DNA of 61,080 nt. It comes from a virus (lineage: Duplodnaviria; Caudoviricetes). Positions 1-38,598 of the stretch are shown in pieces. The stretch lies in IMG/VR virus record IMGVR_UViG_3300002092_001354, positions 1-61,080 of that record; one strand, given 5' to 3'. Position 1 is the first letter of the stretch, and the number at the start of each line of letters is the position of its first letter. Both the position numbers and the translations under genes were made by a program. The notes beneath the pieces are model-generated. The model was not told where the DNA came from. It ran no database searches and saw only the letters and a program-made list of their open reading frames with translations.

Positions 1-150
1 AGAAGGATATAAACAAATATCGTCAGGGACTGACGATTACAGACGTGGAGATGAAATAAGACCAACTTCAGTTGGCACAATCGGTGAAACGTCTAAAATT
101 CAGGGGGTTATCCCTGAATCCCAAGAATTAATAATTCTCGGGTAGTTCAA
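1..150 (+). mobile_element. Right end of an IS200/IS605-family (TnpB) element, including the omega-RNA region
   Basis: Two hairpins, TTCAGGG..CCCTGAA (99-118) and CCCAAGAATTA-A-TAATTCTCGGG (120-142), are followed by TAGTTCAA ending at 150. The intact tnpB at the other window edge has the same GGGTAGTTCA end. Confidence 0.75.
2..145 (+). CDS. tnpB: TnpB C-terminal tail (partial, begins before the window)
   Basis: The frame from nt 2 reads EGYKQISSGTDDYRRGDEIRPTSVGTIGETSKIQGVIPESQELIILG*, resembling the post-RuvC-III tail of TnpB. The stop lies at the base of the terminal hairpin. No catalytic motif is inside the window. Confidence 0.65.
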   Translation, partial: EGYKQISSGTDDYRRGDEIRPTSVGTIGETSKIQGVIPESQELIILG

Positions 151-169
151 GATAATAACATTTTAGTAA

Positions 170-1444: not shown

Positions 1445-1468
1445 TCTATAGAAATTAATTAAAATAAT

Positions 1469-3508
1469 ATGCCTTGTAGTTCAATATATTGTATAAATAA
1501 CACCGGTTTAGTTGGAGCCGACGACACCTATATAACAGGTGGAACCCATAATGGTTACACTTATTGGTCGGGACAAACTAATGGGTGGGTGATTTTTTAT
1601 TCAACCGGAACAACTATCCAATGGTGTTTATCAGACACTTTTAGTGGAACTTGTTCATTAGCAGGAAAAACACCTTGTTATAGTGAATGCCCTGATTTAA
1701 ATAACGCTTATTTTAATTCCGGAGTATGTTCAACACCAACACCTACTCCAACACAAAATTGTAGTGTTTTAGATTTTAACGCAATATTTGACTGTGAATT
1801 TATCCCAACACCAACACCAACGCCAACCGCAAGTATCACCCCAACACCAACAATTACTCCAACGGCAACAAACCCTTGTTCTATTATTGGAATTGACGCT
1901 ATCGCCTATAGATTACCTGAAACATTACCATTAATGGTTGACAATAATACCTCATTACAGGTATTTGAACCTTTAACAATTATGAATTGTGGTGTTTCTG
2001 GTGATGTAACATTTAACTTAATTAACGATGATATTGTTTGTAGTAATATTAAAATATTTCAAGATTGTTATAATTCTGAATTATATTATTGTTCTAACGT
2101 AACTCAACTACCCGGAGAATCATTGGGATTATTCCAAGTATACGGAGCTTTAGTCAATAATGAATCTAAATGTATATCATATATAGGTGATAGTGATAAT
2201 AATGTAGATATCAATATAAATCAAATTATTATTAACACAACATCATTTGGAAACGTTAATGATGGTAAATGTATTTTGTGTATAACATATGTGCCACCAT
2301 CACCAACACCAACACCAACTTCAACAGTTACACCTACCGTTACACCAACAATGACGTTGACACCAACAATGACTCCGACACCTGACGCTTCACCAACCCC
2401 TACACCAACAATGACAATGACAATGACGCCAACTATGACTCAAACACCAACTATGACACCAAGTTCAACTCCAAGTTGTTCTAATGATACTCTTGAAAGG
2501 TCTAGCGCTGGCGGTTTTTATCAACCAATGTTTATGTGTAAGGATAATTCAGGAAACTATTTTACCTCAGATAATACTCCATTTATCAAGTATTTTATAA
2601 ATTATTCAAATTCACAACCATTAGTGGGGACTAATGCGTTTAAATTATCTTATAATAACACAACACCAAGCGTAACTGCAGATTCAAATATAGTTTATAA
2701 TTCAACAAATAACAAGTTGTATGTTTTTGCCGGTAGTTACGCTGGTGTATTTGTTTTAGATTTAAATACTTGGGCACCAGGTGTTGTGTCTACATCAACA
2801 ACTAGAATCAATGTAGATTACATATATAATGGTTTCTCTCAACCAACCACTATTGAAGGTATGGTATATAATAGTATTAACAACAGAGTGTATTTTATAA
2901 CAACAATGACTAACCGAAACATTGGTTATATAGATTGTTCAACAAACACAGTCACATATTTAGACACAACACTTTGGGGTATTTATCCCGGTAATATAAG
3001 TTCAATGGTCTATAACCCATTAGTGAACAAAATATATTTAAAAGGTAATACAATGGGGCAATCGTTAAAAATTATTGATTGTCAATCAAATACAGTATCA
3101 ACAATAAGTATAGGTGGCACTACAATTCATTCAATGTCTCTTAAACCAAATACAAACACATTATATATACTTATAACACCAAACATCGTTATCGAATTTA
3201 ATTGTGCAACAAACACTTATATAACTTGGCCATCAACGTCATCACCTAAACCCTTCGGTTTTGAAGGTAACTCAACATATAATATATTTAACGATAAAAT
3301 ATACGTATCTATATCAACAACATCTTACGGTGGGGTATTAATAGTTGATACTATTACTAAAAACATAACAAGTGTTACTAATTGGCCATCTAATCAAATA
3401 GGGTGGGGTATAATTTCAACAAACAACTCTTCTAATAAAATATTTGTTTTTAGCACTGGTTCTGAAGGATACGAATTAAAACAGATTTGTGGGTCACCAC
3501 ACTCATAA
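1469..3508 (+). CDS. Cys-rich fibre/adhesin-like protein with Pro/Thr linkers and a C-terminal YVTN-like beta-propeller
   Basis: PTPTPT linkers; C-terminal repeats YNSTNNKLYV, YNSINNRVYF, YNPLVNKIYL and IIDCQSNTVSTISIG. Confidence 0.6.
   Translation: MPCSSIYCINNTGLVGADDTYITGGTHNGYTYWSGQTNGWVIFYSTGTTIQWCLSDTFSGTCSLAGKTPCYSECPDLNNAYFNSGVCSTPTPTPTQNCSVLDFNAIFDCEFIPTPTPTPTASITPTPTITPTATNPCSIIGIDAIAYRLPETLPLMVDNNTSLQVFEPLTIMNCGVSGDVTFNLINDDIVCSNIKIFQDCYNSELYYCSNVTQLPGESLGLFQVYGALVNNESKCISYIGDSDNNVDININQIIINTTSFGNVNDGKCILCITYVPPSPTPTPTSTVTPTVTPTMTLTPTMTPTPDASPTPTPTMTMTMTPTMTQTPTMTPSSTPSCSNDTLERSSAGGFYQPMFMCKDNSGNYFTSDNTPFIKYFINYSNSQPLVGTNAFKLSYNNTTPSVTADSNIVYNSTNNKLYVFAGSYAGVFVLDLNTWAPGVVSTSTTRINVDYIYNGFSQPTTIEGMVYNSINNRVYFITTMTNRNIGYIDCSTNTVTYLDTTLWGIYPGNISSMVYNPLVNKIYLKGNTMGQSLKIIDCQSNTVSTISIGGTTIHSMSLKPNTNTLYILITPNIVIEFNCATNTYITWPSTSSPKPFGFEGNSTYNIFNDKIYVSISTTSYGGVLIVDTITKNITSVTNWPSNQIGWGIISTNNSSNKIFVFSTGSEGYELKQICGSPHS
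2342..2457 (+). repeat. 116-bp repeat copy A, inverted relative to 14183-14298
   Basis: Manual alignment gives 112/116 identity to the reverse complement of 14183-14298. It encodes [39 protein letters not shown]. Confidence 0.9.
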
Positions 3509-3515
3509 CTAATTT

Positions 3516-3818
3516 ATGACAACAATTGACATCACAAATATTACAGGATTAAATTATCCATATAACATTTATGTCTGTGACATCTATGGTAACAATTGTA
3601 TATTAATTGCAACAGTTTCTACAAATATCCCACCAACTAATACCATATTATTACCACCACCATTTAATATGGCACCATCTGTTGGTATTAAAATAATAAC
3701 ATCCGATGGCTGCGTAAAATTTAAAGTGTTTGACTGTACGGTACCAATATCAAAACAATTTCAAGATTATGAATTTTTTGATTTTATGGATGGTATAAGT
3801 TATGATTTTCAAAATTAA
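3516..3818 (+). CDS. Small Cys-containing putative virion protein (stand-alone N-terminal module)
   Basis: ITNITGLNYPYNIYVCDIYGNNCILIATV aligns with INNISGASPFNIYLCDPSNITCIYIDTI of ORF 170. Confidence 0.6.
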   Translation: MTTIDITNITGLNYPYNIYVCDIYGNNCILIATVSTNIPPTNTILLPPPFNMAPSVGIKIITSDGCVKFKVFDCTVPISKQFQDYEFFDFMDGISYDFQN

Positions 3819-3820
3819 AG

Positions 3821-3827
3821 TATTTAT
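3821..3827 (+). promoter_or_regulatory. TATTTAT promoter-like motif (representative + strand copy)
   Basis: The same motif lies shortly upstream of starts at 5171, 9465 and 11921 (+) and at many - strand starts. Confidence 0.6.
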
Positions 3828-3841
3828 AATAAAAATATAGA

Positions 3842-4810
3842 ATGAGATTAACAGATAGAACTATTGCAACCGGTATAACAAAAGAAGATTTAATACATAT
3901 TGTAATCACGGGTGATACAACACAAAGTCCTGAAGGTTCTTCGTATAAAGCCAAAGTAGGTCAATTACTTGAGTTATATAGTTTGCCTGTACCATTAGTT
4001 AAACTTCAATCATTTTTTCTTGGTGGTGGTTCTGATGTTGTGACTCTAAATCTTGACAATACCGTTGGGAATGATGTAAAGTTAATAAACCCCCCGTCAA
4101 TTACTACACAAGATTTGTCACAAGAACAAATTGACCACGGAGTGTTTGTTGAAATGGTTCAATATAAAATGAAAGGTGGTACACTTAATAACCCTAAAGG
4201 TGGTGGATATATTGTTCAACCTAGAATGGAAGATGATGGTTTTGGTAATATAACCAATGAACTACAAAATAGAATTATGACTTATTATGGTAAAACCATT
4301 AATAATAGAGGTGGTATTCAAACATATTATGACACGCCAGGGTTAACAATACCATTAATCACCCCAAGAATGAATCATTATCAGGTACAAGATATAAATG
4401 AATCAGTCGATTTAACAGATTATTTTAAAGGTAGATATACATATACAAGAATTAAATATTGGAATGGTACAGATGTAGCGTTATCAGATGTACCAGTACC
4501 ATTCACAAATAAATCTAAAAATGTAAATACTAAAATAAAATCAGGTAATAGCGGTACACCTTATCGTCTATGTTATACAGGTAATTTAACCTCGTTATAT
4601 GTGGCCTTTAGATATTTAATGTTTGACCCATATTCTAATAATGGAAAAGGTAAATTTATTGAGGGCCCTTTAAGTAAAACAATTAAGGTAACTAACAAAT
4701 TTTTTCCATTCTTAAAAACACCAACAGATGGTATTTGTACTGTAAATACAGAGTTTACCTCATCAACAAATAATACTTTAATCAGATTTAGTTTTGTAAA
4801 TAATTCTTAA
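3842..4810 (+). CDS. Hypothetical protein, possibly fibre-like
   Basis: 322-aa ORF within the fibre cluster, preceded by TATTTAT. No firm family recognised. Confidence 0.55.
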   Translation: MRLTDRTIATGITKEDLIHIVITGDTTQSPEGSSYKAKVGQLLELYSLPVPLVKLQSFFLGGGSDVVTLNLDNTVGNDVKLINPPSITTQDLSQEQIDHGVFVEMVQYKMKGGTLNNPKGGGYIVQPRMEDDGFGNITNELQNRIMTYYGKTINNRGGIQTYYDTPGLTIPLITPRMNHYQVQDINESVDLTDYFKGRYTYTRIKYWNGTDVALSDVPVPFTNKSKNVNTKIKSGNSGTPYRLCYTGNLTSLYVAFRYLMFDPYSNNGKGKFIEGPLSKTIKVTNKFFPFLKTPTDGICTVNTEFTSSTNNTLIRFSFVNNS

Positions 4811-4815
4811 TATAA

Positions 4816-4908
4816 TTTAGTGCGTTACTCTCAGGAGTAATGATTTTTTAGTGCGTTACTCTCAGGAGTAATGATTTTTTAGTGTGTCACCCCAAGGGGT
4901 GATACTTA
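4816..4908. repeat. Three tandem 31-bp hairpin units between convergent genes
   Basis: TTTAGTGCGTTACTCTCAGGAGTAATGATTT occurs twice exactly (4816-4846, 4847-4877). A diverged third unit, TTTAGTGTGTCACCCCAAGGGGTGATACTTA, still folds. Confidence 0.85.
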
Positions 4909-4911
4909 TTT

Positions 4912-5094
4912 TTATAGAGTTTCGTCTTTTGGTTTTTTACCTAAGTTTTCATATATCCTTAAAAGTTTTAAGGACTCGTAGTAATTTTTTTCAAGACGTT
5001 CCAATTCTTTTTCCGGAACACCTTTGTCACAAGCCAATTCATATAATTCTTTAGCTTCTGTAACAATATTTGATATGGTACTAATAAGTTTCAT
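4912..5094 (-). CDS. Small hypothetical protein (60 aa from MKLISTI)
   Basis: The ATG at 5094 directly follows GATATTTATAGAT. It is the only credible - strand gene in the + block. Confidence 0.6.
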   Translation of the reverse strand: MKLISTISNIVTEAKELYELACDKGVPEKELERLEKNYYESLKLLRIYENLGKKPKDETL

Positions 5095-5197
5095 ATCTAT
5101 AAATATCGCCAATCACACCATTTATTAAAAGTAAATGTCAATTATATTTTAATAAAATCAAACTTTAGATTATTTATAGTAAAATAAGAAATATAAA

Positions 5198-5872
5198 ATG
5201 GTAGGGAATAACATATATTACTTTGAATCTTGTTGTGGAAATGTTCCATCTTTTGGTATATCAAGTGGTGAAACAACAACGCCTTGGACTAATTTTATAA
5301 ATACCGTTGGAAGTACATATGCGGTTGTTATAGATAATGTGTTCTCAGGATGTGTAACATATAGTGGTGTAACATCAACACCATTAGAAGGATTAACAAT
5401 TTACACTCCAAGACCAACTTTTTATGTTTATGATTGTGATGTTTGTATTCAAATATATCCGTGTTTTACCTCACCACCGGTTCATATACCTGTAATAACT
5501 GGACATATAAATGAATGTGGTGTAATTACAATTATGCCGATGCTCGTTGAGTGTATGTCAAGTCCACCATCATCAGCACAATCATCAGATGGTGAAGTTT
5601 CGGTGATAATTTCAGGTGGAACGTCTCCCTATACTATTTATTGGTCTTCATCAACAAATCCAACTATGGGTATTCACCCCGCGTTACATAATTTACCAAA
5701 CGGTACTTATGCCGCAACTGTTGTTGATTATTATGGAGATTTTACTGAAACAGTTTATTGTACAATAAATACTAATAAAGATTGTAATTTTAACGCAACC
5801 ATAACCGAATACATTGTCGATGAATGTATTCCAACCGCAATGTCCGGATACACATTCGATATAACAAATTAA
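5198..5872 (+). CDS. Cys-rich protein with one SprB-like repeat
   Basis: DGEVSVIISGGTSPYTIYWS..NLPNGTYAATVVD. Confidence 0.65.
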   Translation: MVGNNIYYFESCCGNVPSFGISSGETTTPWTNFINTVGSTYAVVIDNVFSGCVTYSGVTSTPLEGLTIYTPRPTFYVYDCDVCIQIYPCFTSPPVHIPVITGHINECGVITIMPMLVECMSSPPSSAQSSDGEVSVIISGGTSPYTIYWSSSTNPTMGIHPALHNLPNGTYAATVVDYYGDFTETVYCTINTNKDCNFNATITEYIVDECIPTAMSGYTFDITN

Positions 5873-5877
5873 TTTAT

Positions 5878-8121
5878 ATGTCTTTTTCAGCTGCAACTTG
5901 TATAACATTTAATGGGTTACCACCATCACCTCAAGTAGGTCCTTTTACAATTTATTATGATAGTGGTCACACTGAAGTTATATTATCTAATGTTAATTTA
6001 TCTGAGTTAACACCACCAAATTGCCCATACATTATTTCAAACATAGATGATGGGACAGAATTTTTTTATTTTAAAGACCAAAACAATTATTGTTTTACAA
6101 TTTCAGTTCAAGATAACGATATTTGTAGTAATTGTAATTTAGGATTATCTCAATATTCCTCAACAACAATAACAAGATTATCTTGTGGTGTTTTAACAGG
6201 GTCTTGTCAAAATATTACGGACTATGTTATTCATTGGTATGGACCAAACGATACAACAACATTAGCATTAACTTCGGGTGGTGGGAATATTTTTTCAGGT
6301 GAATATGAGCACATTCACCCTTTTTTAAATAATAACTCAGTACCTTTACCCGAAGGTGTATATACGCCCGTTATTGAAAAGATAATCTTAAGTGGTTTAA
6401 CTTTTTCAAACACAGGTGGTACTAATAATATTTTAGTGGATTTAAACACTTGTTTACCTTCAACCACCATACAACCATTAACTTGTAGTAATAAAACTAA
6501 TTTTACCAATGAGTTCACAGGATATAATCATTTTATATCGTATGATTTTAACAGTTCAAATTTACCTGTACCTGTTATAATGACATATAAAGTTTCCTCC
6601 TCGACTAAATTTATTGGATGGAAATTTAAAGGTGAAACTAATCCAGATAGAATACAAATTAAATTTAGTGGTGCCTCATATGGTACAAATATTATTGGTT
6701 TAGATGACGTTATAGTTGGAAGTAATCTTACATCATCAAATTTTAACCCAACTGTTTTCCCTAAATCAGCCTCAACATCATATTATTTTACAAAGTTAAC
6801 TTGTTTAACCGGTTTAACCGTTAACGATAATGACAATATTTTAATAACTGTGACACCAGCATCTACAGATACTAAATGGTCGTTATATTCAACTTGTATA
6901 TCTAATTTTGACTGTAACACTTGTTTAACAAGTAATGACTATAAAATAATTGGGTCAACCATTACGGGAATAACAGGTAGTTGTAAATCAACAATTAAAT
7001 TTTCAATATCAGGATGTAACGAAAATATATATAAATCAAGTGATTTATATAAATATTATTTTGACCCGTACAGTATTGATGGTGATTACCAATACGTTAA
7101 TTATACTTTTAGTAACATTAATATAATAGTTGATTACCCCTATATGAACCCACTTCAATTTATTAGTGCAGATTATTTAATTAATCAAAATGTTTGTTAT
7201 GAAATCCCACTGTATACCATAACAAGTTCTTGCACTGGAGACACAAATAACGTTATTTATGAAAAAACTTTTGTTGGTGGTGTGGGGTCAAAAGGTATCT
7301 ATAATATAACAGGTTCATCAACAGTTATATCCTCATACTATAATAGTTGGAGTAATCTTTTAACAAATTATTCAGGTAGTTCGTCATCAACTGATGTGAA
7401 TTATTATAGGTTGTTTTTTATGAACATTCCTGGCAAATTAACATCAAATAATTGTAATGAAAGTCCATCAGTCACTAGAATAGAAGTTCATCCTTCATCA
7501 AAAGTAACTACAGGTATAACAAATAATGGTAGTTATTATTTTAAATTAACTGCAGAAACAATTTCTAATAATTTTTCAGCGGTAACTAATTGTGATATTA
7601 ATTGTCTTTCAAAAAGTAATGGGTTTGTTGATAGAGCAAATGAATCATCAACGGGGACAACATTAGATTACGGTAATTATCGTAGGGAGTTTATATATGA
7701 CCCAACAACAAATAAATACGGGGTTTATTATACTAACGGATTTTATTGGTGTCAAGCAATGAATAAATATAATACAACTATATCCGCACAAACAATTGGT
7801 GGTCTATTCTATACAAATCATTGGACAACAAATACAATACCATATTCAGGTATTAGTAATACATTAATTCCCCCATTTTCAGGTACGCTTTGTAATTACA
7901 ATACTTTAGGAGGTAAAATCACCCCTTATAAAAATTCGTATTATAATGAATACAATTTATTCAATTATTTTATAATAAAACCAAATACATCTGATTTTGA
8001 AATATGGGCATCACCTATTGTTAATTTTAGTGCAAATACAAATTTTAACTCAGCTATTTTAGCTTACAGATATTCCGGAGGAAGTGCAACAACTATTAAT
8101 CCAACATATATTATTACATAA
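5878..8121 (+). CDS. Large Cys/Thr/Ser-rich putative virion fibre protein
   Basis: Likely start MSFSAATC lies 5 nt after the upstream stop. N-terminal GPFTIYY motif is shared with ORF 8124. Confidence 0.6.
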   Translation: MSFSAATCITFNGLPPSPQVGPFTIYYDSGHTEVILSNVNLSELTPPNCPYIISNIDDGTEFFYFKDQNNYCFTISVQDNDICSNCNLGLSQYSSTTITRLSCGVLTGSCQNITDYVIHWYGPNDTTTLALTSGGGNIFSGEYEHIHPFLNNNSVPLPEGVYTPVIEKIILSGLTFSNTGGTNNILVDLNTCLPSTTIQPLTCSNKTNFTNEFTGYNHFISYDFNSSNLPVPVIMTYKVSSSTKFIGWKFKGETNPDRIQIKFSGASYGTNIIGLDDVIVGSNLTSSNFNPTVFPKSASTSYYFTKLTCLTGLTVNDNDNILITVTPASTDTKWSLYSTCISNFDCNTCLTSNDYKIIGSTITGITGSCKSTIKFSISGCNENIYKSSDLYKYYFDPYSIDGDYQYVNYTFSNINIIVDYPYMNPLQFISADYLINQNVCYEIPLYTITSSCTGDTNNVIYEKTFVGGVGSKGIYNITGSSTVISSYYNSWSNLLTNYSGSSSSTDVNYYRLFFMNIPGKLTSNNCNESPSVTRIEVHPSSKVTTGITNNGSYYFKLTAETISNNFSAVTNCDINCLSKSNGFVDRANESSTGTTLDYGNYRREFIYDPTTNKYGVYYTNGFYWCQAMNKYNTTISAQTIGGLFYTNHWTTNTIPYSGISNTLIPPFSGTLCNYNTLGGKITPYKNSYYNEYNLFNYFIIKPNTSDFEIWASPIVNFSANTNFNSAILAYRYSGGSATTINPTYIIT

Positions 8122-8123
8122 TT

Positions 8124-9452
8124 ATGAGTACTACTAAACATTATACTATACAAATAAATGGTGGGTCAACATCACCAGGTCCGTATACCATTTATTATGG
8201 TTCATTCCCTAACCCTCCATTATTTACAGGTTCTATTGTACCCCCTATTTATCCAATAGGAACACCAATAGAATTAGCGGAAAATAAAGGATTAATTGAA
8301 TTACAATTTGGTATAACTGTTGAAGTCCCGTTGTCAACAACTGTTTTATATCTATACAATCAACTTTGCCCTGAAAATACAATTACTTTAGTACCAACTA
8401 ACAATATTGTTTATAAAGATTTTTGTATGTCATTTGAAAATCGTACAATTTATGAAGTTATTCAATTTACTTATGCCGGAATAAACTTGATAAACAATAC
8501 TCCTTATTGGTGGAATAACGTAAATCATAATATTACAATAAAATGGAACGGTTCTAATTGGATATTAAATGGTTATCAACCATATACATCAACTTCGGCA
8601 ACTATACAATCATCTGCGTCTGTCACTTCAAACCCACCAATAAATGGTTGGGACTCATTTGGTTATACTCCAGATGAAAAAGTTAATATTACAACAATAG
8701 AAGATACTTGTCCACCAATATCTCAGAAACAATCTTACCCTGCTAGTATTAACCAACCAACTTGTTTGTGTGATGGTAGTATTTTATTTAACCCTAATTT
8801 AAATAACCCCCCATTCACATATTCAATAAATAATGGTGTTACATATAGTGATTCCCCAATATTTACAAATTTATGTTCAGGAATTTATAGTTTATCTATT
8901 TTAGATTCATTAGGTAATAATTTTAATAAAACAATTACTTTAAATAAACCGACACTTGCAACAACATATACGTTATCTTTGAATACTACACCAACCACTC
9001 AAATTAATAATCCAACAACTATTTCTAAAACTTATGAGACAACTATTTTAGTAACACCGGAACTACCGGATGGTACCACATTATATTTTGATTTTGTACA
9101 TAATAATAGTTTTTACTCAGGGCCATTAAGTGGTACATCAATACTAACAACAGGCACATTATTATATAAAAATGAAATGTCGATTCCATTATCAACAACA
9201 TTTAGTGGTGAATCAACATCAGTTAATACATCACCGGGTTGTCAAAACACAACAATATATCAATATAGTACTTCAGACTCTTGGAATACATTAGAATTAA
9301 CAAATAGCGACATTATAACAATTACCACATCAACTAGAGTAGATAAGACCACATTAGGTCTTTGTGTTGTTGGATATAGTGATGACACATACTCAATTAC
9401 TAACGCTCGTATAGCGGGCTGTGATTGTTGTACAATATTAATTAACACATAA
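8124..9452 (+). CDS. Putative virion protein with an SprB-like repeat
   Basis: QPTCLCDGSI..PPFTYSINNG..FTNLCSGIYSLSILDSLG. Confidence 0.6.
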   Translation: MSTTKHYTIQINGGSTSPGPYTIYYGSFPNPPLFTGSIVPPIYPIGTPIELAENKGLIELQFGITVEVPLSTTVLYLYNQLCPENTITLVPTNNIVYKDFCMSFENRTIYEVIQFTYAGINLINNTPYWWNNVNHNITIKWNGSNWILNGYQPYTSTSATIQSSASVTSNPPINGWDSFGYTPDEKVNITTIEDTCPPISQKQSYPASINQPTCLCDGSILFNPNLNNPPFTYSINNGVTYSDSPIFTNLCSGIYSLSILDSLGNNFNKTITLNKPTLATTYTLSLNTTPTTQINNPTTISKTYETTILVTPELPDGTTLYFDFVHNNSFYSGPLSGTSILTTGTLLYKNEMSIPLSTTFSGESTSVNTSPGCQNTTIYQYSTSDSWNTLELTNSDIITITTSTRVDKTTLGLCVVGYSDDTYSITNARIAGCDCCTILINT

Positions 9453-9476
9453 TCAAAATTATAATATTTATACAGT

Positions 9477-11891
9477 ATGGCATATATACTTAAAAATACA
9501 TCGGGTTTAGTAAATACAAGATTAACTGATACAGGTAGATTAAAACTATCTGAAGGTAATTTTAACATTTCATATTTTCAAATAGGAGATAGTGAGGTGT
9601 CTTACAATACATTATCAAATACTTACAATCAAACTAGAACAAACATATTAGAACCTAATTTTAATTCACAAAATTCTGCTCAGGGACAAACTAATAAACA
9701 AAATGTTAAATATCCTTATTATGTGGATGGAGTAAACGGTAACACTTACGGTATACCATTTATGGCTTCTGAAGTATCCCCAATTTATAATACGGCAGCA
9801 ATTAGAGGTTTTTTCTCAGGTAATACTACGTTAAATACTTGGAGCGCAATTACAACTAATTTATATGTTATTAATTCAAATTATATTGTTGATATGAATT
9901 CTTTAACAGGTGGTACAAAAATTAAAATAATTTTTTCAGGTAATAACTCAAATATGGTTAGATTACCATCTAAAGGAGATTTTATTACCATTTACTATGA
10001 CGGTAATGGTAAAACTGACTATGTGTTAGCACCAACACCATCAACACCTACCCCAACTCCAACACCCACAATAACACCATCTTACGATGCCTGTAAATTA
10101 CCTGACCCATCACCAACACCTTCATCAACTTGTTGTATACCAACACCAACAGGATGTACACCAACACCTGCCCCACAATATGTAATGCCAATAACCAATT
10201 GTTATAGTATGTTGACATATCGAATTGTTGATATTTGTTTAGACGTAATCACATTAGATAGAGTAACACCTGACTTTTCATATATTGCATCAGGTTGTTC
10301 ATATTCGAGAGTATTAGTTTACCCACCAAATATGACATCACTATACGATAGTGTAACACCATTACAACATTGGAACCCTGATGTTATTAATTTTGAATCA
10401 GTTTGTAACACAGACCAATTTGATGTTAAAGTTTGGAATATGAATATTCCCTGGTCGGAGAATCCCGCCGGATTATTTGATGGTCAAAACATTGGATTTA
10501 AAAACTTTACATCGTCAACTTATTTAGGTACAAAAGAATACTTAGGTTATATGACTAGTAGTGGTCAAACTTTTGTTGATAGTAATAAAAACACAATTAC
10601 TGACCAAACATACTATATAGATACTTTTGGAAACAAAATAATTGTAACACCTGAAGACCAAAAAGCTATCGCGATTATTCACTACACAAATCAAACTATT
10701 GATTTTTTCTATGGTGAAAAATTTGCTATGGAACCATATAATACGTTAACACCTAACGATACTACAGGAGACGCTAGAAACTTTAAATTACATATTCCTT
10801 GGCTGATGTGGCATAAATCGCCAACTTGTTGTGTTGGTGAAACATTTTATGTTGACCCACCTAACGATGAGTTTGAGGAATCTAATTTATTAACACCATA
10901 CTACATTCAATCAACTAAAAATAGTGATATGAATGACCCCGGTATTCGTTACTATAATTTATGGGACACATATCCATCTAAAAATAATGAATCAATACCA
11001 AACAGAGTTGGTAAAGTATTTCCTGACCAAAAAATTATAGTAATTGACGATGATGAATTAGTCGCCGCTCTCTCATATAAATCAAATCGTAACTGGACTT
11101 TACCGGCAGCAACAACAACATTAATAACACCAAATACTTGTAATACTGAATCATCTAATATAGGTGTTTTAACAAATCCTAATGAAAGTATGTATGTATC
11201 ATACTTACTTACTAACACGTCGTCAGGAGCAACTAACTCATTACATTGTAATTATTATTCAAATATTGTTGGCCCCTATAATGACTGTAATAATATTGGT
11301 ACACAAAATGTGGCCGTTAGATTCAATGGCGAATTTAATTGTTTAAATCAAATTACTAACACTCCTTTACCTACAGGTTATTTGGCTGACACATTTCAAA
11401 TAATTTGTCAAAAAGTAACAGGTAACACTAGACCAGTGTCTTCTGAATGGAGATTAATTGATTTTACTTCTGACTTAACATCAACAAATGTTAACGGATA
11501 TATTACCCAATCAGGACTTACAGGTAATACATTTATTATCACTAATGATTTATATAATTCAGCAAGTAATAACACATATAACTTAAACGATTATATTGAA
11601 TTACCAACTGAAATATCTAACACAACTCTTAATTTTGGTGATGAGTATTACTTCTATGGTTCATTAGAAACTGATATTCAAGCGACAATTTATGAGATGA
11701 AATATAAAATAAATCTTGGTCAAGCAGAATTCCAAGTATCCTCAAATCCAAGTTGGTCCGCAAACACAAATTCATATATTACCGAAATTGGTCTTTACGA
11801 TGATAATTTCGACCTTATGATTGTATCAAAACTACAATCTCCGGTCTTTAGACAGGGCATACAACAATTCTTATTGAGATTCGATTTTTAA
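9477..11891 (+). CDS. Baseplate/tail-fibre attachment protein (tail-collar fibre-like termini)
   Basis: N-terminal LTDTGRLKL..ISYFQIGDSEV and C-terminal YITEIGLYDDNFDLMIVSKLQSPV resemble the tail-collar fibre (DUF3751-like) fold. Internal Pro/Thr/Cys linker. Confidence 0.55.
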   Translation: MAYILKNTSGLVNTRLTDTGRLKLSEGNFNISYFQIGDSEVSYNTLSNTYNQTRTNILEPNFNSQNSAQGQTNKQNVKYPYYVDGVNGNTYGIPFMASEVSPIYNTAAIRGFFSGNTTLNTWSAITTNLYVINSNYIVDMNSLTGGTKIKIIFSGNNSNMVRLPSKGDFITIYYDGNGKTDYVLAPTPSTPTPTPTPTITPSYDACKLPDPSPTPSSTCCIPTPTGCTPTPAPQYVMPITNCYSMLTYRIVDICLDVITLDRVTPDFSYIASGCSYSRVLVYPPNMTSLYDSVTPLQHWNPDVINFESVCNTDQFDVKVWNMNIPWSENPAGLFDGQNIGFKNFTSSTYLGTKEYLGYMTSSGQTFVDSNKNTITDQTYYIDTFGNKIIVTPEDQKAIAIIHYTNQTIDFFYGEKFAMEPYNTLTPNDTTGDARNFKLHIPWLMWHKSPTCCVGETFYVDPPNDEFEESNLLTPYYIQSTKNSDMNDPGIRYYNLWDTYPSKNNESIPNRVGKVFPDQKIIVIDDDELVAALSYKSNRNWTLPAATTTLITPNTCNTESSNIGVLTNPNESMYVSYLLTNTSSGATNSLHCNYYSNIVGPYNDCNNIGTQNVAVRFNGEFNCLNQITNTPLPTGYLADTFQIICQKVTGNTRPVSSEWRLIDFTSDLTSTNVNGYITQSGLTGNTFIITNDLYNSASNNTYNLNDYIELPTEISNTTLNFGDEYYFYGSLETDIQATIYEMKYKINLGQAEFQVSSNPSWSANTNSYITEIGLYDDNFDLMIVSKLQSPVFRQGIQQFLLRFDF

Positions 11892-11943
11892 AAAAAATAA
11901 CACTTTGATGTAAAGTAATATATTTATATGTAAAGATATAGAT

Positions 11944-12087
11944 ATGACAGGAAAAACAAAAAAAGTAAGACAATCAATAACAATCGATAGTATTATTATC
12001 GAAAAAATTAAAGAAAAACATATTAATTTTTCTTCATTAGTTAATAAACTACTTAAAGAGTATTTTAGTGATGGTAAAAATATGTAA
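11944..12087 (+). CDS. Small ribbon-helix-helix-like DNA-binding protein (47 aa, absent from the ORF track)
   Basis: MTGKTKKVRQSITIDSIIIEKIKEKHINFSSLVNKLLKEYFSDGKNM*. It follows TATTTAT, overlaps the HNH start, and has a paralog at 42151-42312. Confidence 0.7.
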   Translation: MTGKTKKVRQSITIDSIIIEKIKEKHINFSSLVNKLLKEYFSDGKNM

Positions 12088-12868
12088 TAAGTGTTTAATT
12101 GAAAAAAATGTTTCTTGTTTTTATAAAAACAAAAATACCAAAGACGGGCATATCAGCATTTGTAAGGAATGTAGAAAACAAACAGAACAAAAATATTATA
12201 AAAAAAATATTGATAAAATTATAGAATATCGTGAAGGTAAAAAAGAGGAAATGAAAGAGTACTTAAAAGAATATTACCAAACAAATATCGATAAAATAAA
12301 AGAATACCGTAAAAATAATGAAGAAACTCTTAAGTTAAAAAGAAAAGAACATTATTTAAATAATAGAACTAAATTGATTGAAAAATCAAAAAATTACAAT
12401 TCTCAAAATAAAGAAAAAATACAAGAATATAATAAAAAATACCGAGAAGATAATTTAGACAATGAAATAAATAGATGGAAAGAATATTATAATAACAATA
12501 GAGAGACTTTAATTAAACGAAGTAATTATTACTCTAAAGAAAAGAGAAAAAGTTCCCCATTAGAAAAATTAAAACATAATATTAGAAATAGAACTAACGA
12601 ATTTCTTAAATCTAAAAATATTAGGAAAACCAATAAAACATTCAACATTATTGGTTGTTCTCCTGAGTTCTTGAAAGAACACATAGAACAAAAATTTACT
12701 GACGGTATGTCTTGGAATTTAATGGGACAATACATTCACATAGACCACATAATCCCATTATCATCCGCAAAGACCGAAGAAGAACTTTACAAATTATGTT
12801 ATTATACTAACTTACAACCATTATGGGATATAGATAATTTAAAAAAATCCAATAAATTAATTAATTAA
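12071..12868 (+). CDS. HNH homing-endonuclease-like protein
   Basis: N-terminal CxxC..CxxC, Lys/Glu/Tyr-rich helical repeats, and C-terminal HIDHIIPLSSA..YYTNLQPLWDIDNLKKSNK. Confidence 0.85.
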   Translation: MVKICNKCLIEKNVSCFYKNKNTKDGHISICKECRKQTEQKYYKKNIDKIIEYREGKKEEMKEYLKEYYQTNIDKIKEYRKNNEETLKLKRKEHYLNNRTKLIEKSKNYNSQNKEKIQEYNKKYREDNLDNEINRWKEYYNNNRETLIKRSNYYSKEKRKSSPLEKLKHNIRNRTNEFLKSKNIRKTNKTFNIIGCSPEFLKEHIEQKFTDGMSWNLMGQYIHIDHIIPLSSAKTEEELYKLCYYTNLQPLWDIDNLKKSNKLIN

Positions 12869-12873
12869 AAAAA

Positions 12874-13476
12874 ATGATTAGAAATAAATTAAAAGAAAGT
12901 CCTAAAGTTTTGGGTCTTGATGTCTCAACTCGAACAATTGGTGTTGCATTATTTGACATACAAAGTAGAGAATTATTAGAACTAACTCACGTATCACCAA
13001 CACCAAAACCAAAGGAAGATAATAAAATAAAAGAACTACTTCTTAAAGGTGAAATCTTTAGAACCAAACTTTTAGAGTACAAAGATATGGGTATCACTAA
13101 GGTCATTATTGAAGAACCTTTATTAAACTCAAATAATGTCTATACAGTACAAACTCTATTAAGATTTAATACTTTGGTTACAAAAGAAATTTACGACGTT
13201 TTAGGGATAGTCCCTGACTTCATATCAACATATAACTCTCGTAAGTTCGCCTTCCCGGAATTAGTTAAAGAAAATGATAAAGGTAAATTTGTTTTATTTG
13301 GTGGTCTACCAAAAGACATTGATAAGAAACAAATTATATGGGAATTAGTATCTAAAAAAGAACCTCAAATTATGTGGTTATACACAAAGAATAACACTCT
13401 CAAAAAAGAAAACTTTGACCAAACAGACGCTTATTGTTGTGTCTTAGGTCATATGAGACAAGAAAATATTTGGTAA
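12874..13476 (+). CDS. RuvC-like Holliday junction resolvase
   Basis: RNase H-fold acidic motifs VLGLDVSTRTIG, VIIEEP and FDQTDAY. Confidence 0.75.
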   Translation: MIRNKLKESPKVLGLDVSTRTIGVALFDIQSRELLELTHVSPTPKPKEDNKIKELLLKGEIFRTKLLEYKDMGITKVIIEEPLLNSNNVYTVQTLLRFNTLVTKEIYDVLGIVPDFISTYNSRKFAFPELVKENDKGKFVLFGGLPKDIDKKQIIWELVSKKEPQIMWLYTKNNTLKKENFDQTDAYCCVLGHMRQENIW

Positions 13477-13506
13477 AAAATAACCCCCTTAATTGGGGGG
13501 GTTTTA
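13477..13506. terminator. Bidirectional intrinsic terminator at the convergence of the + and - blocks
   Basis: AAAAATAACCCCC-TTAATT-GGGGGGGTTTT hairpin flanked by A and T tracts. Confidence 0.7.
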
Positions 13507-16476
13507 TTTACAGATACCGTTCAATATTAATTTATTATTGTCTTTACCACAACCAACTATATATGAATACTCATAATTGTTAACAACACCAGGGATTGTG
13601 TCATTTATAATAACAGCATTTCCTGAATTATATGTTGTAATGTCTTGAATTAAAGAATAACCATCACCAATAAAGTTCACTCTAATGGTAATTGTATCAC
13701 CCTCAACAATATCATATGTCTGAGAATAAGAGGTTATTAAATTATTATTCCAAGAATAAAGAAGTGCACCATTTAACAATACCTTACCTATCCCCTCACC
13801 TTTACATTTATTTCTATATAGTAAATCTAATTTACATCCTTTAACACCCGGACTACTTAATGATTTAACCATTTCAAGACATTTCTCACAATTATATATG
13901 TTACCATCAATAGTTGTAAAATAATTAACAGTACCCGAATCATAAGTGTTTGGATAAATACCTTGATATTGAGATAATGTTAAACTATCTCCAATTAATT
14001 CCCAACAAGTATTATTTTTTCTTACATCAGTAAACAATATGGTATCACCTAATACCATTCCTTCTATCACTAACATAGATTGAAGAATCACAAGAGACTT
14101 ATCATTTCCACCACACTCTCTATAAGCGTAATATGTCACTAACGGAGATGGTGTTGGTGTTGGTGTATATGTAGGTGTCGCAGTCATAGTTGGCGTTTGA
14201 GTCATAGTTGGTGTCATTGTCATTGTCATTGTTGGTGTAGGGGTTGGTGAAGCGTCTGGTGTCGGAGTCATTGTTGGTGTCAATGTCATTGTTGGTGTTA
14301 ATGTCATTGTTGGTGTTAATGTTGGTGACATACTTGGAACTGGTGTACAATGCTCACAAGAAATGTCATAATCAAGTCTTACCTTAACAATAACGGTTGT
14401 ATTATGTAACGATTCAGGATTACAATTAGTTTTAATATTAATTGTATTATCCGGATAAGTTTCAACATTACCCGCACCAATTTGTGGTGAACTTTCAATT
14501 AATGTTTTAACCCAATAATAAAAATAACTATCTGTTGGGTAATCATTTAATGTATATCCTGTATAAATTACACTAGAAGTAACAAAAGTCCCTGCAGTAA
14601 CACTAAGAGTATAAATCGCACTATTTAACACACAATTTGTAAACCCCGATGTTAAATCATAAAACCCTTCATTTAACATTTCTCGAGGCCCCGTATTAGC
14701 AATTACCGGATTTCTACCTAATGTTAAATCACCACTACAAACACTATAAGAACCAAAACCAGCATATTCGTTAATACCTTTAATAATAATGTCTTTTGTT
14801 TTGGAAAATCCCCCTGAATCTACAACTCTTAGAGTATATGTGCCAGCAGATAAATTATTAATTGTCATACCGGTTTCACCATTTGACCATATGAATTGAA
14901 AAGGTGGTTCTCCATTTAAAACATATGCGGATATACTACCATTAGAATTTATAGCAAAATCACTACTTAATAGATGAAAATCCACCTGTTTTGAGGTTTC
15001 AATAGTAAAAGGAGTTGATTGATAACATTTAGTACTGTCAACCACACTAGCAAGATAATTTCCTGAGGCTAAATTGTTAAAAGCATATGACGTTACCGAT
15101 GTTGTTACTAATTGTGAGTTAATACTATAAGTATATGGTGGTGTTCCACCGCTAGTAATATAAAATGTGACACTACCATTCTCATTTCCACCTGTTGTTC
15201 CGGTAGTTAACACATTTAAACCAAATAGAACGTCATTACTAATAGTATAAGTATTTGAATAAGTACAAGGTCCTAAATCTGTAACATTTAATGTATAAGT
15301 ACCTGACGATAAATTTTGAAATTTCCAAATATTACTATTAACTGTATTTGTTTTTACATTACCGTTGGAATCTGTTAAAGTATAGGTATAAGGAGGAGTC
15401 CCCCCCAATACAGTTATTGGACCTAACACACCTGATAAGTTATTACATTTTGAATTTGTTTTATCAACCGATACACTTGATATTCCCGCAGGTGTTAATA
15501 GTGTTGTCGATGAGGTTGATTTACATAAACCAGCATCAGTAACTTCAACAGTAAAATTACCCGGAGATAAACTTGTAAAAATAACATTTCTATCAAATGT
15601 TATTACTGACTCACCATTAGACGCCAAATAGTAAAATGGTGCCGTACCATCAACAACAACCACACTTACCTCACCATCAGCTGTAAAACAACTTGGTTGA
15701 GTTACATACAATGAACCTATTGACACCGGTTTTACTATATCAACATTAGCACTTTTAGAAACACCACATCCACTACTATCCGTAACTGTAACACTATATG
15801 TTCCCGCAGTTAATCCTGTTAATGAATCCCCTATTTGACCATTTGACCATAAGTAACTATATGGGGGGTTACCCGTTAAACCACTTACAAATATTTTACC
15901 CGAATTTGTTGTACAACCAGCATCATTAACCACAAATAAATTATAATTTATTGTTGTTGAAGTTTTAACTATACAAGTTTCTGACATACCTGTACATCCA
16001 GCACCATCATCCGCAATCACATAATATGTTCCAGCACTTAACGACGTAAATTCCGCAACATTTGAATATGGTGTTGACGATGCAATAAATCCTAAAGTAT
16101 TTTCATATAACGAGAATGTTGCATTTCCGTAAGAATATGTTGTTGATGCTGTTATTGACCCATTATTTAAACCACATAAAGTATCTATATGACTATCTAT
16201 TGTTGTACAAGTACCACTAGAAATTAAAACATTTACAGGTAATACGGTATTAGGAGAACAGCTATCAATTATATTAAATGTATAAGTACCAGCACTTAAA
16301 AATATTTTTTCATATGTGCTCACACCAACACCTAAAGGTATTACATCAGTAATTGGTGCTAACCATTGTATTGTATATGGTGAGGATGACCCTGTTATAT
16401 TTAGAGCAAATCCCCCCGCAAAAGAGTTAGTACAATCACCTGTTATACTAATATTATATGTTAAATTACAAGCCAT
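13504..16476 (-). CDS. SprB-repeat adhesin-like virion protein
   Basis: Multiple repeats such as [31 protein letters not shown], then a Pro/Thr/Met linker and a Cys-rich C-terminal domain. Confidence 0.8.
14183..14298 (-). repeat. 116-bp repeat copy B, inverted relative to 2342-2457
   Basis: 112/116 identical to copy A, encoding the same peptide in the same frame. Confidence 0.9.
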
Positions 16477-16480
16477 TTTA

Positions 16481-19400
16481 TTAAGAGCAACTAATTGTAA
16501 AGTTTATTCCAACGTCTATTTTGATATTCCAACCTAAATCTTTGTTAACACAGTTTGTGTTAAATATTGTAACTGTTGTATTAGTATCATTAAAATAATA
16601 ACCAAGACCTTTTGTGAGTAAACCATCTAAAGAATATCTTAAAGAAGTTTGCCATTTTTGATTAGTTGGTACACTAAAAGTTTCATTAACCGCCGAACCA
16701 CTAAAGAACCAATCACTAATTATTAAATCACCATTAAAGGTAATATTGACATACCAATCAGATATTACACTACTACTAGCACAATCCGCTAATTCATTAT
16801 TTATAGTATAAGAACTAATAACCGAATTTAATACACCATTAAAATTAGACACCTTACCACCAAACGGATAAACATCACATTCTTTTGATTGACGAGGACA
16901 ATCGTGATTATATATTGTGGTAGTTAATTCACACGGTTTACAAACAACCGGAACAAATTGACATCCTCTTTGTCTTCTCCACACAAATTTTTGTCTGTGA
17001 AAGATTGAGTTCTCAAATTTAACACCTGTATTCCAAAGAGTACTTGCGGGTATCATTTGTTCCACTAAACGAATCCAATAATCACCCATACCATTAACAT
17101 ATTGTGTCATAGTTTCATAGGTGAAATTATCATTTGCCACCCCTACAATATTTTCAGATTCTAAATATCTCCAATAGATTGATTGTAGTGTTGGGTAACC
17201 GCTAGTTCCCCCATCAGTCGCAAATTGTCTATTTCTAACATTAATTGTGTTTTTCCAAAATGTTTGAGCAAATTCAAAGAATGATTTATTCTTTGGTTGA
17301 GGATTAATTACCGTCCAATCTATATCACCTTTACTTGGATATATTGAAACCGGATTAGGATTACAATAGGTTGGTTGGACATAATTTAAACCCTCATTCG
17401 GTATTGGAAAATTATATTGATTTGACATATACCAAACATCATATAACAATCCCTGGCTAGGATTTAAAAATAAATCAATATTCTTAACATTTATAACTAA
17501 GTTATCGTTATTAACACTATATGAAGAATCAAAACCCCCATCTAAATTAAGTCGATTACCTATTTCAGTATCAACCCAACTTTTATTATTATCAACAACT
17601 TGTTTTAAATTAAACCCTAATGTTGTGTATGGTAATTGTCTATAAACATTTAAAAAATCTTGACCATAACTAAATGGTGTTAATTTAGTTTGATAGTTAG
17701 GGTTAGACCCTGTAAATACACTATTTGTTAAATCAACTTGTTCCAAAGACCTATGTTTAGGTGTTGATTCAAACCACCCACTACCCATTTGAAAGAAATA
17801 AGAATCCGTATTTGCCGGAGATTTTGGATACCCAAAGTTATCAATAGGATAATCCTGAAGACTCACATTTGAATCACTTAATGTTGTACTTGTTGTAAAT
17901 CCTGTGTACCCACTACCTTGAATTGTAAAAACATATGTTGGGTCTAAAACAGGAATACTTTTTGAGTATGTACCTCCCGAAATATTCGCGAATTGAGAAT
18001 TAAACTCATTTATATTAATTTTTTGGTCAGCCAAATAAATGTATTCATTAAATTCAACTAAAGCATCCGGAGCACCAATCATTCTCATTAATGTTTCAAT
18101 CGATTTTCTAGTCCCTTTAGATTTGAATAAGTAAGCCGAGTTAAGTATTAAATTGTTATAATAATTATAGTTTAATTCATCAGGTGTTTGAGATTGTGAA
18201 ACCCCATCAAATGATGAAGTATCGTTATTTTTTTGACCAAAGATTGAGTTTAAAAAATTATCATTAGATATTGGTGTAATATTTGTCGCCCAACCTAATG
18301 TTTGAGCTAAATTTTTTAATAATTGAGATGGGATATCATTCCCCGTATTATAATTCACCGAATTCATATACGCCAAAGCATTTATGAATTTTTTAGTCTC
18401 ATCAAAACTCCTACCATATATCTGTAAAACTTTTTGTATCTTTTGGTCAACAGTATCAAATTCTCTAAAAGAATCCGTTGTTAAAAATCTTGAAACGAGA
18501 TTTGTTTGGTAACTATCAAAAGATGCACTAATATCATTTAATGTTGTCAAATAAACCGTGAATGAATTTGTTAAAATATCTAAATTCCAAGTACCCATTA
18601 AAGGCCAAGTAACATTTTCATTATTAATATAATATGAACCATCCTCACTTTCCATTGGAACTTTAAACGTGGCTGTATATATTGGAGATATATTTCTATT
18701 CAATAGAAATCGTTGTACCTCATCTAAATCAATACTAAACACACTATTAACCTCGTGGTCATTAGGTCTAACAATAATATTATCGATAGAACTTGTTTGT
18801 CCTGAAAATGGGTTACCATTTACGAAAATTTTAAGAGTTCCTGAAGATGTCGAACTAGTTGGAACAATTTGTTTAACATCATACCCAACACCATTATAAT
18901 ATAATGAATACTTAGCGTATTGAATTGTCATATTACGCAACTCAGATACTTGTATTTCTCTTAATTGTAGATTTCTTGTCGCATTAACAGAAAAATCAAT
19001 ATCAAAAGGATTTCTAATTCTATTAACAATTAAATCAAAATTAGTCTCATTTGTTACCTGATTATAAACTATATTTGTCGCCGTATCACCGGTCACATAG
19101 TTTTCATCCATAAAAGTAACTTCCAAAGCCGCAGGGAATTTACTAATGATAGTCTCAACAGATGTTGAGATTCTTTTAACCATTGACCCGTAAGTTGTAA
19201 AATTAGTGACTTCGGTTAAATCAAAATTAGGATAAACTTTAAAGTTATTTTCAAACACCGATTTTGATTGGTCAACACTTGAAAGTCCCAATCCTTCTAA
19301 ATTTACTGGACTTGAAAATGTTCCTGTAGAAAATGTTCTATTAACCTTTTCAGTTAAAGATGTTGTAAATTCAAAATTACCTTGCGTTAACCCTCCTCCA

Positions 19401-19489
19401 GTAACCAATTGGAATCCAACCGCATTATCTGAAAAAGTACCCGCACCTGTTGCCGGTTGTGGTGGACAAGTAAAATTTTTATTCGCCAT
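16481..19489 (-). CDS. Baseplate wedge protein (P2 gpI / T4 gp7-like domain)
   Basis: [36 protein letters not shown] is the tail protein I-like signature. Confidence 0.65.
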
Positions 19490-37329: not shown

Positions 37330-37334
37330 ATTTT

Positions 37335-38543: not shown

Positions 38544-38598
38544 ATTAATTATTTAATAATAAATATCTCAAAAATAAAAAAGTTAGACAGGGACACAA

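Follow-up and report, generated by a model that had tools for sequence, protein, structure and literature searches.

Tail-fibre segments that are inverted by serine invertases are known from Mu (G segment, Gin), P1 (C segment, Cin), e14 (P segment, Pin) and p15B (Min). In Mu, alternative fibre tips are turned on and off in this way, and in both Mu and P1 one of the two cassettes is silent. The exchange of fibre tips is normally thought to need either an invertase with silent cassettes or co-infection. Other rearrangements are described in the portions of four reports drawn on here: recombination at conserved gp37/gp38 glycine-rich motifs of the T-even distal fibre locus (PMC3157838), modular shuffling mediated by promoter early stem–loop (PeSL) cassettes in T4-type phages (PMC2839356), module inversion at repeat regions between the Campylobacter group II T4-like phages CP21 and CP220/CPt10 (PMC4546147), and genomic isomerism in Anabaena cyanophages, where repeats of 400–700 nucleotides (nt) lie around ~30 kilobases (kb) and the coexistence of isomers was documented by polymerase chain reaction (PCR) and read mapping (bioRxiv 10.64898/2026.02.14.705889). 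The locus analyzed here lies in a 61,080-nt stretch of viral DNA (the window), which is the whole IMG/VR entry IMGVR_UViG_3300002092_001354 (positions 1–61,080) and which CheckV places at ~21% of a genome. Within it, a 116-nt inverted repeat sits in frame in the Pro/Thr linkers of two convergent genes, termed A and S, and relatives of the window phage carry the block between these linkers in either orientation. The two genes, their parts and the repeat arms are as follows.

1469–3508, plus strand: gene A, 679 amino acids (aa), made up of an N-terminal part, a linker and a tip
aa 1–272 of gene A, plus strand: N-terminal part, Cys-rich and conserved
2285–2473 (aa 273–335), plus strand: Pro/Thr linker of gene A, 63 residues
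2342–2457, plus strand: repeat arm 1, 116 nt, 38 codons in frame 0 of gene A (aa 292–329)
2474–3508, plus strand: C-terminal tip of gene A, 344 residues, variable
13504–16476, minus strand: gene S, 990 aa, made up of a SprB-repeat shaft, a linker and a tip
aa 1–about 712 of gene S, minus strand: shaft with SprB repeats (expectation value, E, 6e-19)
14134–14325 (aa 718–781), minus strand: Pro/Thr linker of gene S, 64 residues
14183–14298, minus strand: repeat arm 2, 116 nt, 38 codons in frame 0 of gene S (aa 727–764)
13507–14142, minus strand: tip of gene S, Cys-rich, with two subdomains
2458–14182, no strand: segment that an arm-to-arm crossover would invert, 11,725 nt, holding the tip of A, genes 3516–13476, a bidirectional terminator and the tip of S

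To verify the repeat, positions 2342–2457 were compared base by base (by script) with the reverse complement of 14183–14298, and 112 of 116 nt are identical (96.6%). The four mismatches (2356, 2383, 2428 and 2446) all fall on third codon positions and are silent. Each arm begins with the first base of a codon in its own open reading frame (ORF; 1469–3508 on the plus strand and 13504–16476 on the minus strand), and the two yield the same 38-residue peptide, including its PDAS and TQT residues. An initial annotation made from the sequence alone had described the repeat in these terms and had placed it just before the C-terminal domain of both genes; recomputation reproduces the former, and dissection of the genes bears out the latter. 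A repeat search lengthens the pair to 145 nt at 90% identity (2313–2457 and 14183–14327), and the longest mismatch-free run between the arms is 44 nt (2384–2427). As also claimed at the outset, the other Pro/Thr linkers of the window do not share this sequence: the record contains only two copies (E 1.2e-72 and 1.8e-52), and the remaining Pro/Thr stretches that were compared with the repeat (the short stretches 1724–1762 and 1796–1876 in gene A, and 10026–10085, 10137–10175 and 53806–53898) share at most 17–20 nt with it, at no more than 26 bits.

The identity of the arms exceeds what the shared peptide alone would produce. In 200,000 simulations in which the peptide was held constant and each gene's own codon usage was applied, 20.7 identical codons were expected and the maximum was 32, whereas the two arms agree at 34 of 38 codons and have rare codons in common. 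Because the observed value lies above the simulated maximum, the repeat reflects common descent at the DNA level rather than low complexity. The silent differences occupy four of the 28 four-fold sites (~14%), so the tract is not brand-new. Relative to other genomes, the window stands apart: its best match between an A linker and an S linker scores 200 bits, compared with 24–70 bits within the genomes of 15 relatives, a range that falls inside the cross-genome background of 24–72 bits. Judged by these alignment scores, the long linker repeat is a peculiarity of the window phage. A general concerted evolution of A and S linkers was also considered and was rejected, since matches within the genomes of the 15 relatives are no better than those between genomes and the linkers are thus not generally homogenised.

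To see whether the block between the linkers has been inverted in nature, the whole module was taken from 15 viral records, for 16 with the window. The order of the window, with A, the internal genes and a converging S, is found in 12 of the 16 (window included). In G001 and G002, two separate records with the same arrangement, the internal genes are inverted, and G005 and G014 have a third arrangement. The closest comparison is that between G010, which is window-like, and G001. These are sister taxa on a tree of the A N-terminal part (A_N), with a Shimodaira–Hasegawa-like approximate likelihood-ratio test (SH-aLRT) support of 99, and their DNA is 76–89% identical. The two are collinear up to the linkers and inverted from one linker to the other: G010 557–1768 corresponds to G001 3083–4300 in direct orientation, G010 1686–2749, 4899–6583, 8334–12457 and 12465–13200 match G001 inverted, and G010 13108–15940 is direct again. 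At the two junctions, the direct and inverted matches overlap by 83 and 93 nt, and these overlaps coincide with the two linkers. The same switch is seen in the individual genes. Gene A of G001 resembles G010 A over nt 1–926 and G010 S over nt 835–1564, with the change inside the linker (nt 823–909), and gene S of G001 resembles G010 S over nt 1–2316 and G010 A over nt 2143–3006, again with the change inside the linker (nt 2131–2358). At the domain level, the Pfam domain Fib_succ_major is mounted on the A scaffold of G010 (aa 344–482) but on the S scaffold of G001 (aa 785–923), and the Cys-rich tip is placed the other way round. By this comparison, G010 and G001/G002 are separated by a reciprocal, in-frame, linker-to-linker inversion that is fixed between natural lineages. 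Mis-assembly at a repeat is an unlikely cause, because two separate records are concerned and their own linkers have just 47 nt in common, at 83%. In the window itself, the reading frames indicate that a crossover would stay in frame, invert ~11.7 kb and swap the tips, much as the initial annotation had predicted, and this outcome is the one seen fixed in G010 relative to G001/G002.

The orientation of this block was then followed through the clade. Its main constituents, some of which served as markers, are listed below.

3516–3818, plus strand: gene B, a small 'adaptor' of 100 aa
5198–5872 (SprB repeat), 5824–8121, 8124–9452 and 9477–11891, plus strand: conserved internal genes that accompany the block in all relatives
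12874–13476, plus strand: the most conserved internal gene, with ~70–94% aa identity across relatives
13482–13503, no strand: hairpin resembling a bidirectional intrinsic terminator, in the 27 nt that separate the convergent genes 12874–13476 and S

Orientation was scored relative to A in loci that reach an internal gene; of 104 sources, 95 matched A_N over 200 aa or more, and these comprised 74 distinct ones, 52 of them scorable. The orientation is the same in 32 of these rows and opposite in 20. A quick maximum-likelihood tree of A_N calls for at least six orientation changes, three of which are forced by branches with support of at least 95, and none of 500 sets of shuffled orientation states did as well as the observed one. 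A second marker, composed of gene 12874 and the start of gene 9477 (44 rows, 29 distinct), gives five changes, at least three of them forced. Both trees point to a block whose orientation has changed at least three times in the clade (five to six times by parsimony). The comparison of relatives proposed with the initial annotation therefore did find inversion of the segment (the 20 opposite rows of 52), and for domain pairings its outcome is split: the pairings are swapped in G001/G002, but the closest protein relatives of the window all keep the parental ones.

Two further observations concern relatives with other arrangements. In class III relatives (G005, G014, L018-20, L024 and others), the possibility that the tip of gene B had come from S was considered and rejected, as this tip is an unrelated repeat domain. 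At L039 (G005) 1919–4060, L048 (G014) 438–2579, L078 10474–12612 and L117 8164–10374, a SprB-repeat gene ends exactly at the would-be start of the linker; these genes have neither linker nor tip and are followed by co-directional internal genes, with the block in the opposite orientation.

The architecture of A and S is that of modular receptor-binding proteins. A family-A profile search recovered 23 viral loci and 80 from metagenomes in which the N-terminal part of gene A is conserved and the tip is not. Relatives of A_N at 74–85% identity range from 407 to 901 aa in length and bear other tips, while the eight relatives of the A tip in the protein database (45–73% identity) all carry it on an A-type N-terminus. 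Relatives of S have Cys-rich, PEBP or Fib_succ_major tips behind a Pro/Thr linker, and the linkers of both families have a common TP(G/D)(A/L)S core. Both genes thus combine a conserved N-terminal part with unrelated tips and a conserved junction sequence. With respect to the domains named initially, the SprB repeats of gene S stand (E 6e-19), whereas the beta-propeller assigned to the A tip is a possible fold only, as its Kelch-type match in Pfam (E 0.0067) is below the cut-off and the Atlas leads reach at most 0.80. The predicted structure of the S tip has a predicted local distance difference test (pLDDT) score of 89.6; a Foldseek search of this model against the PDB gave no clear counterpart, and a weak adhesin-type beta-sandwich resemblance has a template-modelling (TM) score of at most 0.37. 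A locus search of viral contigs with each tip protein singly returned no relatives. Gene S is the last gene of a long minus-strand operon that holds gp6-, gp25- and baseplate-J-like genes. A and S are convergent genes of a receptor-binding type at the end of a T4-like baseplate operon, and by context and architecture their products are predicted to be virion fibres. Separately, linker peptides of 16–19 residues are identical between the A-family proteins P0003, P0004 and P0008 and the SprB/PEBP-family proteins P0049, P0047, P0032 and P0030; these identities among database proteins could be smaller conversion tracts in other phages.

Ordinary homologous recombination between the inverted linkers is the most likely mechanism for these changes. 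The window encodes the following candidate machinery.

42363–43352, minus strand: UvsX/RecA-like recombinase (phrog_97, E 2.8e-11; RecA chains, E 9e-8)
43445–44299, minus strand: gp32-like single-strand DNA-binding protein (PF08804, E 5.5e-12)

The UvsX/RecA-like gene product is presumed to catalyze recombination between the linkers. PHROG matches add EndoVII-like and weakly RuvC-like genes. Of the RecA-like and RuvC-like genes cited in the initial annotation, the first is upheld by phrog_97 and RecA chains and the second is weak: the RuvC-like resolvase match belongs to gene 12874–13476 (phrog_159, E 1.2e-5), which has no match among PDB sequences. The linkers, as low-complexity (ACN-CCN)n DNA with their TP(G/D)(A/L)S core, would serve as homology patches on which the UvsX-like recombinase, the gp32-like protein and the resolvase-like genes act. 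Inverted linkers that recombine without a crossover would have one linker copied into the other, as in the window; with a crossover, the ~10–12 kb block would invert and the tips would be exchanged reciprocally and in frame, as in G001/G002 relative to G010. The repeat is read as a conversion tract because a reciprocal crossover alone cannot make the linkers identical, whereas a non-reciprocal copy can, and gene conversion, which had been put forward as the simpler alternative, is here taken as the best reading of the repeat itself. T4-type recombination is very active, and small homology patches (<50 bp) suffice for it, according to the part of the literature consulted (PMC2839356, citing Singer 1982). 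In keeping with such a mechanism, the sequence comparisons reveal inverted repeats of ordinary homology, relatives with the opposite orientation and breakpoints in the corresponding linkers, and genes for recombination machinery. Altogether, it is probable that the repeat is a gene-conversion tract and that the linkers are homology patches for the phage's own homologous recombination, from which either conversion or inversion results. The repeat of the window would make its phage likelier to invert than its relatives.

Both orientations should be viable, because both tips stay encoded and the terminator, which lies inside the invertible segment, stays between convergent genes in either case. 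In the inverted order, S is followed by the internal genes, as it is in G001, and the repeated fixation of inversions fits the viability of both forms.

Several points weigh against this reading of conversion and inversion by homologous recombination. The breakpoints are traced to the linkers in G001/G002 relative to G010, but not in the class III or L078-type lineages. Because G010 and G001 are only 76–89% identical, their comparison documents an evolutionary event and not a rate. By arithmetic, the probability that all four differences between the arms spare the amino acids by chance is ~0.003, a possible sign of selection on the shared stretch. The recombinase search covered genome fragments that are 14–32% complete, and an invertase could lie elsewhere. 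Finally, the Logan contigs break at the 44-mer shared by the two arms and do not phase the isomers.

These contigs (k=31) come from four sequencing runs that contain the window almost completely, and may be its source samples, and from one that contains 44% of it; those of runs X1, X3, X4 and X5 were aligned to positions 1–17000. In all four aligned runs, contigs stop right at the shared 44-mer, leaving the flanks unjoined across the repeat; in X3, the 44-mer forms a separate 44-nt node with a depth of 461, compared with ~270 on its flanks. Because a crossover within the 44-mer makes no new 31-mer, hybrid junctions cannot be revealed by these contigs. The contig joints listed are short-sided skips between Pro/Thr stretches, with no strand-changing joint among them. 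The exact 44-mer had no match in metagenome and viral contigs, in a search that left out the window's own record and near-identical ones. By arithmetic, the hybrid proteins would be 555 aa (A N-terminus with the Cys-rich tip) and 1114 aa (S shaft with the A tip) long. Protein searches that covered both length ranges returned no hybrid of the predicted sizes, with none of ~555 aa among the 120 matches listed; the parental A protein (P0001) is present on 17 contigs, and the pairings of the window are those of all closer protein relatives. The matches listed include contigs of 150–330 kb. In run X4, a contig of low depth (3.9 relative to ~8) rejoins 14325 to 14308 with 12 other letters between them, which may represent a length variant of the 18-nt unit of the S linker in the natural population.

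The alternative that survives best is a recombinase-free flip-flop, in which the repeat is used often, both orientations coexist and selection or recurrent conversion preserves the shared stretch. In that case, some virions would have the A scaffold with the propeller alongside the S shaft with the Cys-rich tip, and others the reverse pairing. A length of 116 nt with a 44-nt perfect core is within the range used by T4-type recombination as far as the consulted part of the source describes it (PMC2839356). Both crossover products would be in frame, the bidirectional terminator would travel with the segment, the inverted gene order would be that of the natural records G001/G002, and all four differences are silent. 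The coexisting isomers of the ~30 kb cyanophage region, flanked by inverted repeats and with no known recombinase in the portion of the report used here (bioRxiv 10.64898/2026.02.14.705889), offer a precedent. On the other side, frequent exchange should erase the four differences, a reciprocal swap leaves the repertoire of tips unchanged so that the benefit of switching is unclear, and relatives lack long repeats. The contig and protein data add no hybrid junction or listed strand-changing joint, although contigs cannot phase the repeat, no ~555-aa hybrid among the matches listed against 17 contigs with the parental A, and no shared 44-mer in the other contigs searched. The flip-flop is accordingly considered unlikely, though with an appreciable chance. 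A wider version, in which linkers with the PG/DAS core are splice points throughout the clade and the homogenised 116 nt flip the 11.7-kb module at a measurable frequency, is held to be similarly doubtful. The repeat is not read as a programmed switch of the Gin/Cin type, and a programmed or currently active switch in the window phage is a minority prospect, at roughly one chance among several; an on/off switch is also less motivated here than in Mu or P1, because the swap is reciprocal and both tips are encoded either way.

Far less probable is a site-specific inversion by a Gin/Cin/Hin-type or tyrosine invertase that is encoded elsewhere and has its crossover sites in the linkers. The outcome, an in-frame exchange of fibre C-termini by inversion, does resemble that of the Mu G and P1 C segments, and with only ~21% of the genome in the window such a gene would have room to lie outside it. 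However, searches for serine and tyrosine recombinases (PF00239 and PF00589) found none among the 38 ORFs of this partial genome, in agreement with the initial annotation, and none in six-frame searches of G000, G001, G004, G010 and G011, whose records are 14–32% complete. Moreover, the G010/G001 breakpoint overlaps are 83–93 nt of ordinary homology, and the arms of the window are long coding homology rather than short sites. A single constant N-terminal part with mutually exclusive cassettes was not found either; each gene has its own N-terminal part and tip. The likeness to Mu Gin and P1 Cin drawn initially finds no support as far as a programmed switch is concerned: the swap is reciprocal between two complete genes, both tips remain encoded and the 15 relatives compared have no long linker repeat. 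Least credible of all is that no recombination took place, with the repeat produced by convergence of low-complexity linkers under a shared codon bias or by a collapsed or chimeric assembly: Pro/Thr linkers are indeed repetitive and short-read assemblies break at them, but the codon agreement with its shared rare codons surpasses every simulation, the other linkers stay at or below 26 bits, both gene architectures are those of orthologues, and a collapse is countered by the four copy-specific differences, by contigs of four runs, which extend up to the 44-mer on each of the four flanks with similar depth, and by the raised depth of the 44-nt node in X3.

The remaining features of the block and its surroundings are of a mixed nature. 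In relatives, the first ~75 residues of gene B head proteins of 99–641 aa that have their own tips. Upstream of gene A, ORF 170–1444 is a further adaptor-plus-tip gene with weak similarity to gene 3516–3818; in relatives, the counterpart of its first ~66 residues is a separate ORF of ~80 aa upstream of gene A, and in the window this small 'adaptor' bears a DUF5122/delta-60-repeat propeller. Directly after gene 3842–4810, a 31-nt unit is repeated three times in tandem at 4816–4908 (two copies are identical and the third is at 68%); each copy folds into a terminator-like hairpin followed by a T run, and Logan contigs of several runs break here as well. The EndoVII/HNH-like ORF 12068–12868 is present between genes 9477 and 12874 in the window only; its homologues in relatives are upstream of gene A on the other strand, a difference in position that suggests a mobile homing-type gene. 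In one subclade (L021-L025, L045-L049), homologues of gene 9477–11891 are 1069–1174 aa long and match in two pieces ~800–900 nt apart, which points to an inserted element or domain. The promoter motif that the internal genes had been said to carry does not emerge from scans, as sigma-70-like sites (116 relative to 113 expected) and the T4-late-type motif TATAAATA (21 occurrences relative to 20.5 expected) are both at the level of shuffled sequence.

The window as a whole is a piece of a large T4-like myovirus with a G+C content of ~30%. Library scans of its 38 ORFs identified gp6/baseplate-J-like, gp25-like and baseplate-hub-like genes and a class I ribonucleotide reductase. A search of sequencing runs places the window sequence in freshwater and lake metagenomes. 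Among cultured phages, neither megablast with positions 1–20000 nor tblastn with gene 9477 gave a match, and gene S has a single weak match in the phage collection, to an uncultured 642-kb phage. A DnaB-like helicase is split over three ORFs at 36865–39927. The first ends and the third begins with a Hint/intein-splicing match, and a DUF559/MTES_1575 endonuclease-like ORF lies between the pieces; this region may contain an intein with a nested or free-standing endonuclease. Two TnpB-type genes (32131–33318 and 60079–61011) have OrfB_IS605 and Cas12f1-like TNB domains, and one of them separates the gene for the gp25-like baseplate protein from those for ribonucleotide reductase.

If homologous recombination at the linkers is indeed responsible, two genes in one genome exchange their tips by ordinary inversion at a low-complexity linker, and the comparative data place this exchange in nature and, through the repeated changes of orientation, more than once. 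Such inversion would provide a simple intragenomic route to new combinations of scaffold and tip, and would explain why the orientation of the module is unstable in this clade. The natural junctions preserve the reading frame and mark where such proteins tolerate recombination. The window, with runs X1–X4 (one of them at ~270-fold depth), also supplies a testable case of whether ~100 nt of homology are enough for a standing inversion polymorphism in a T4-like phage. Were flipping to occur at a measurable frequency, the locus would work like a shufflon without a recombinase, and in a clonal population the two tips would trade places between a short scaffold and a long one.

In comparison with known systems, the locus shares its central feature with the Gin/Cin-type segments, where an inversion crossover within a fibre gene likewise gives a constant N-terminal part another receptor-binding C-terminus without loss of frame. 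It differs from them in that no invertase was found in the window or in the partial related records, in that the homology comes from 116-nt coding arms within a low-complexity linker rather than from short dedicated sites, and in that two complete convergent genes swap reciprocally, as known here from sequence comparison between lineages. The following likenesses and differences hold for the parts of the sources that were consulted. As with T-even gp37/gp38, the adhesins are modular and short conserved stretches provide homology for swaps of specificity domains by phage recombination; in contrast to that system, which involves co-infecting genomes in direct orientation, the partners here are inverted in one genome, the homology is a Pro/Thr linker and ~10–12 kb inverts (PMC3157838). 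The Anabaena cyanophages likewise have inverted repeats around a large segment, relatives that differ in its orientation and no dedicated recombinase identified, but no in-frame exchange of fibre domains is described in those sections (bioRxiv 10.64898/2026.02.14.705889). T4-like relatives among the Campylobacter phages also differ by large repeat-bounded inversions that are attributed to recombination of the repeats; these repeats are 1–2.9 kb long and mostly extragenic and leave gene integrity unaffected, whereas the breakpoints here are inside two genes (PMC4546147). PeSLs resemble the linkers as short conserved sequences, scattered in one genome, that are sites for T4-type recombination, yet they are intergenic regulatory stem-loops that give rise to insertions, deletions and mini-circles, as opposed to coding linkers that give rise to inversion and protein chimeras (PMC2839356). 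The literature searched, whose coverage leaves out most subscription journals, yielded no account of a reciprocal in-frame tip swap that relies on linkers and not on an invertase. Relative to these systems, what is new is the combination: homology in a coding low-complexity linker, two expressed genes in one genome, and an inversion that yields reciprocal protein chimeras.

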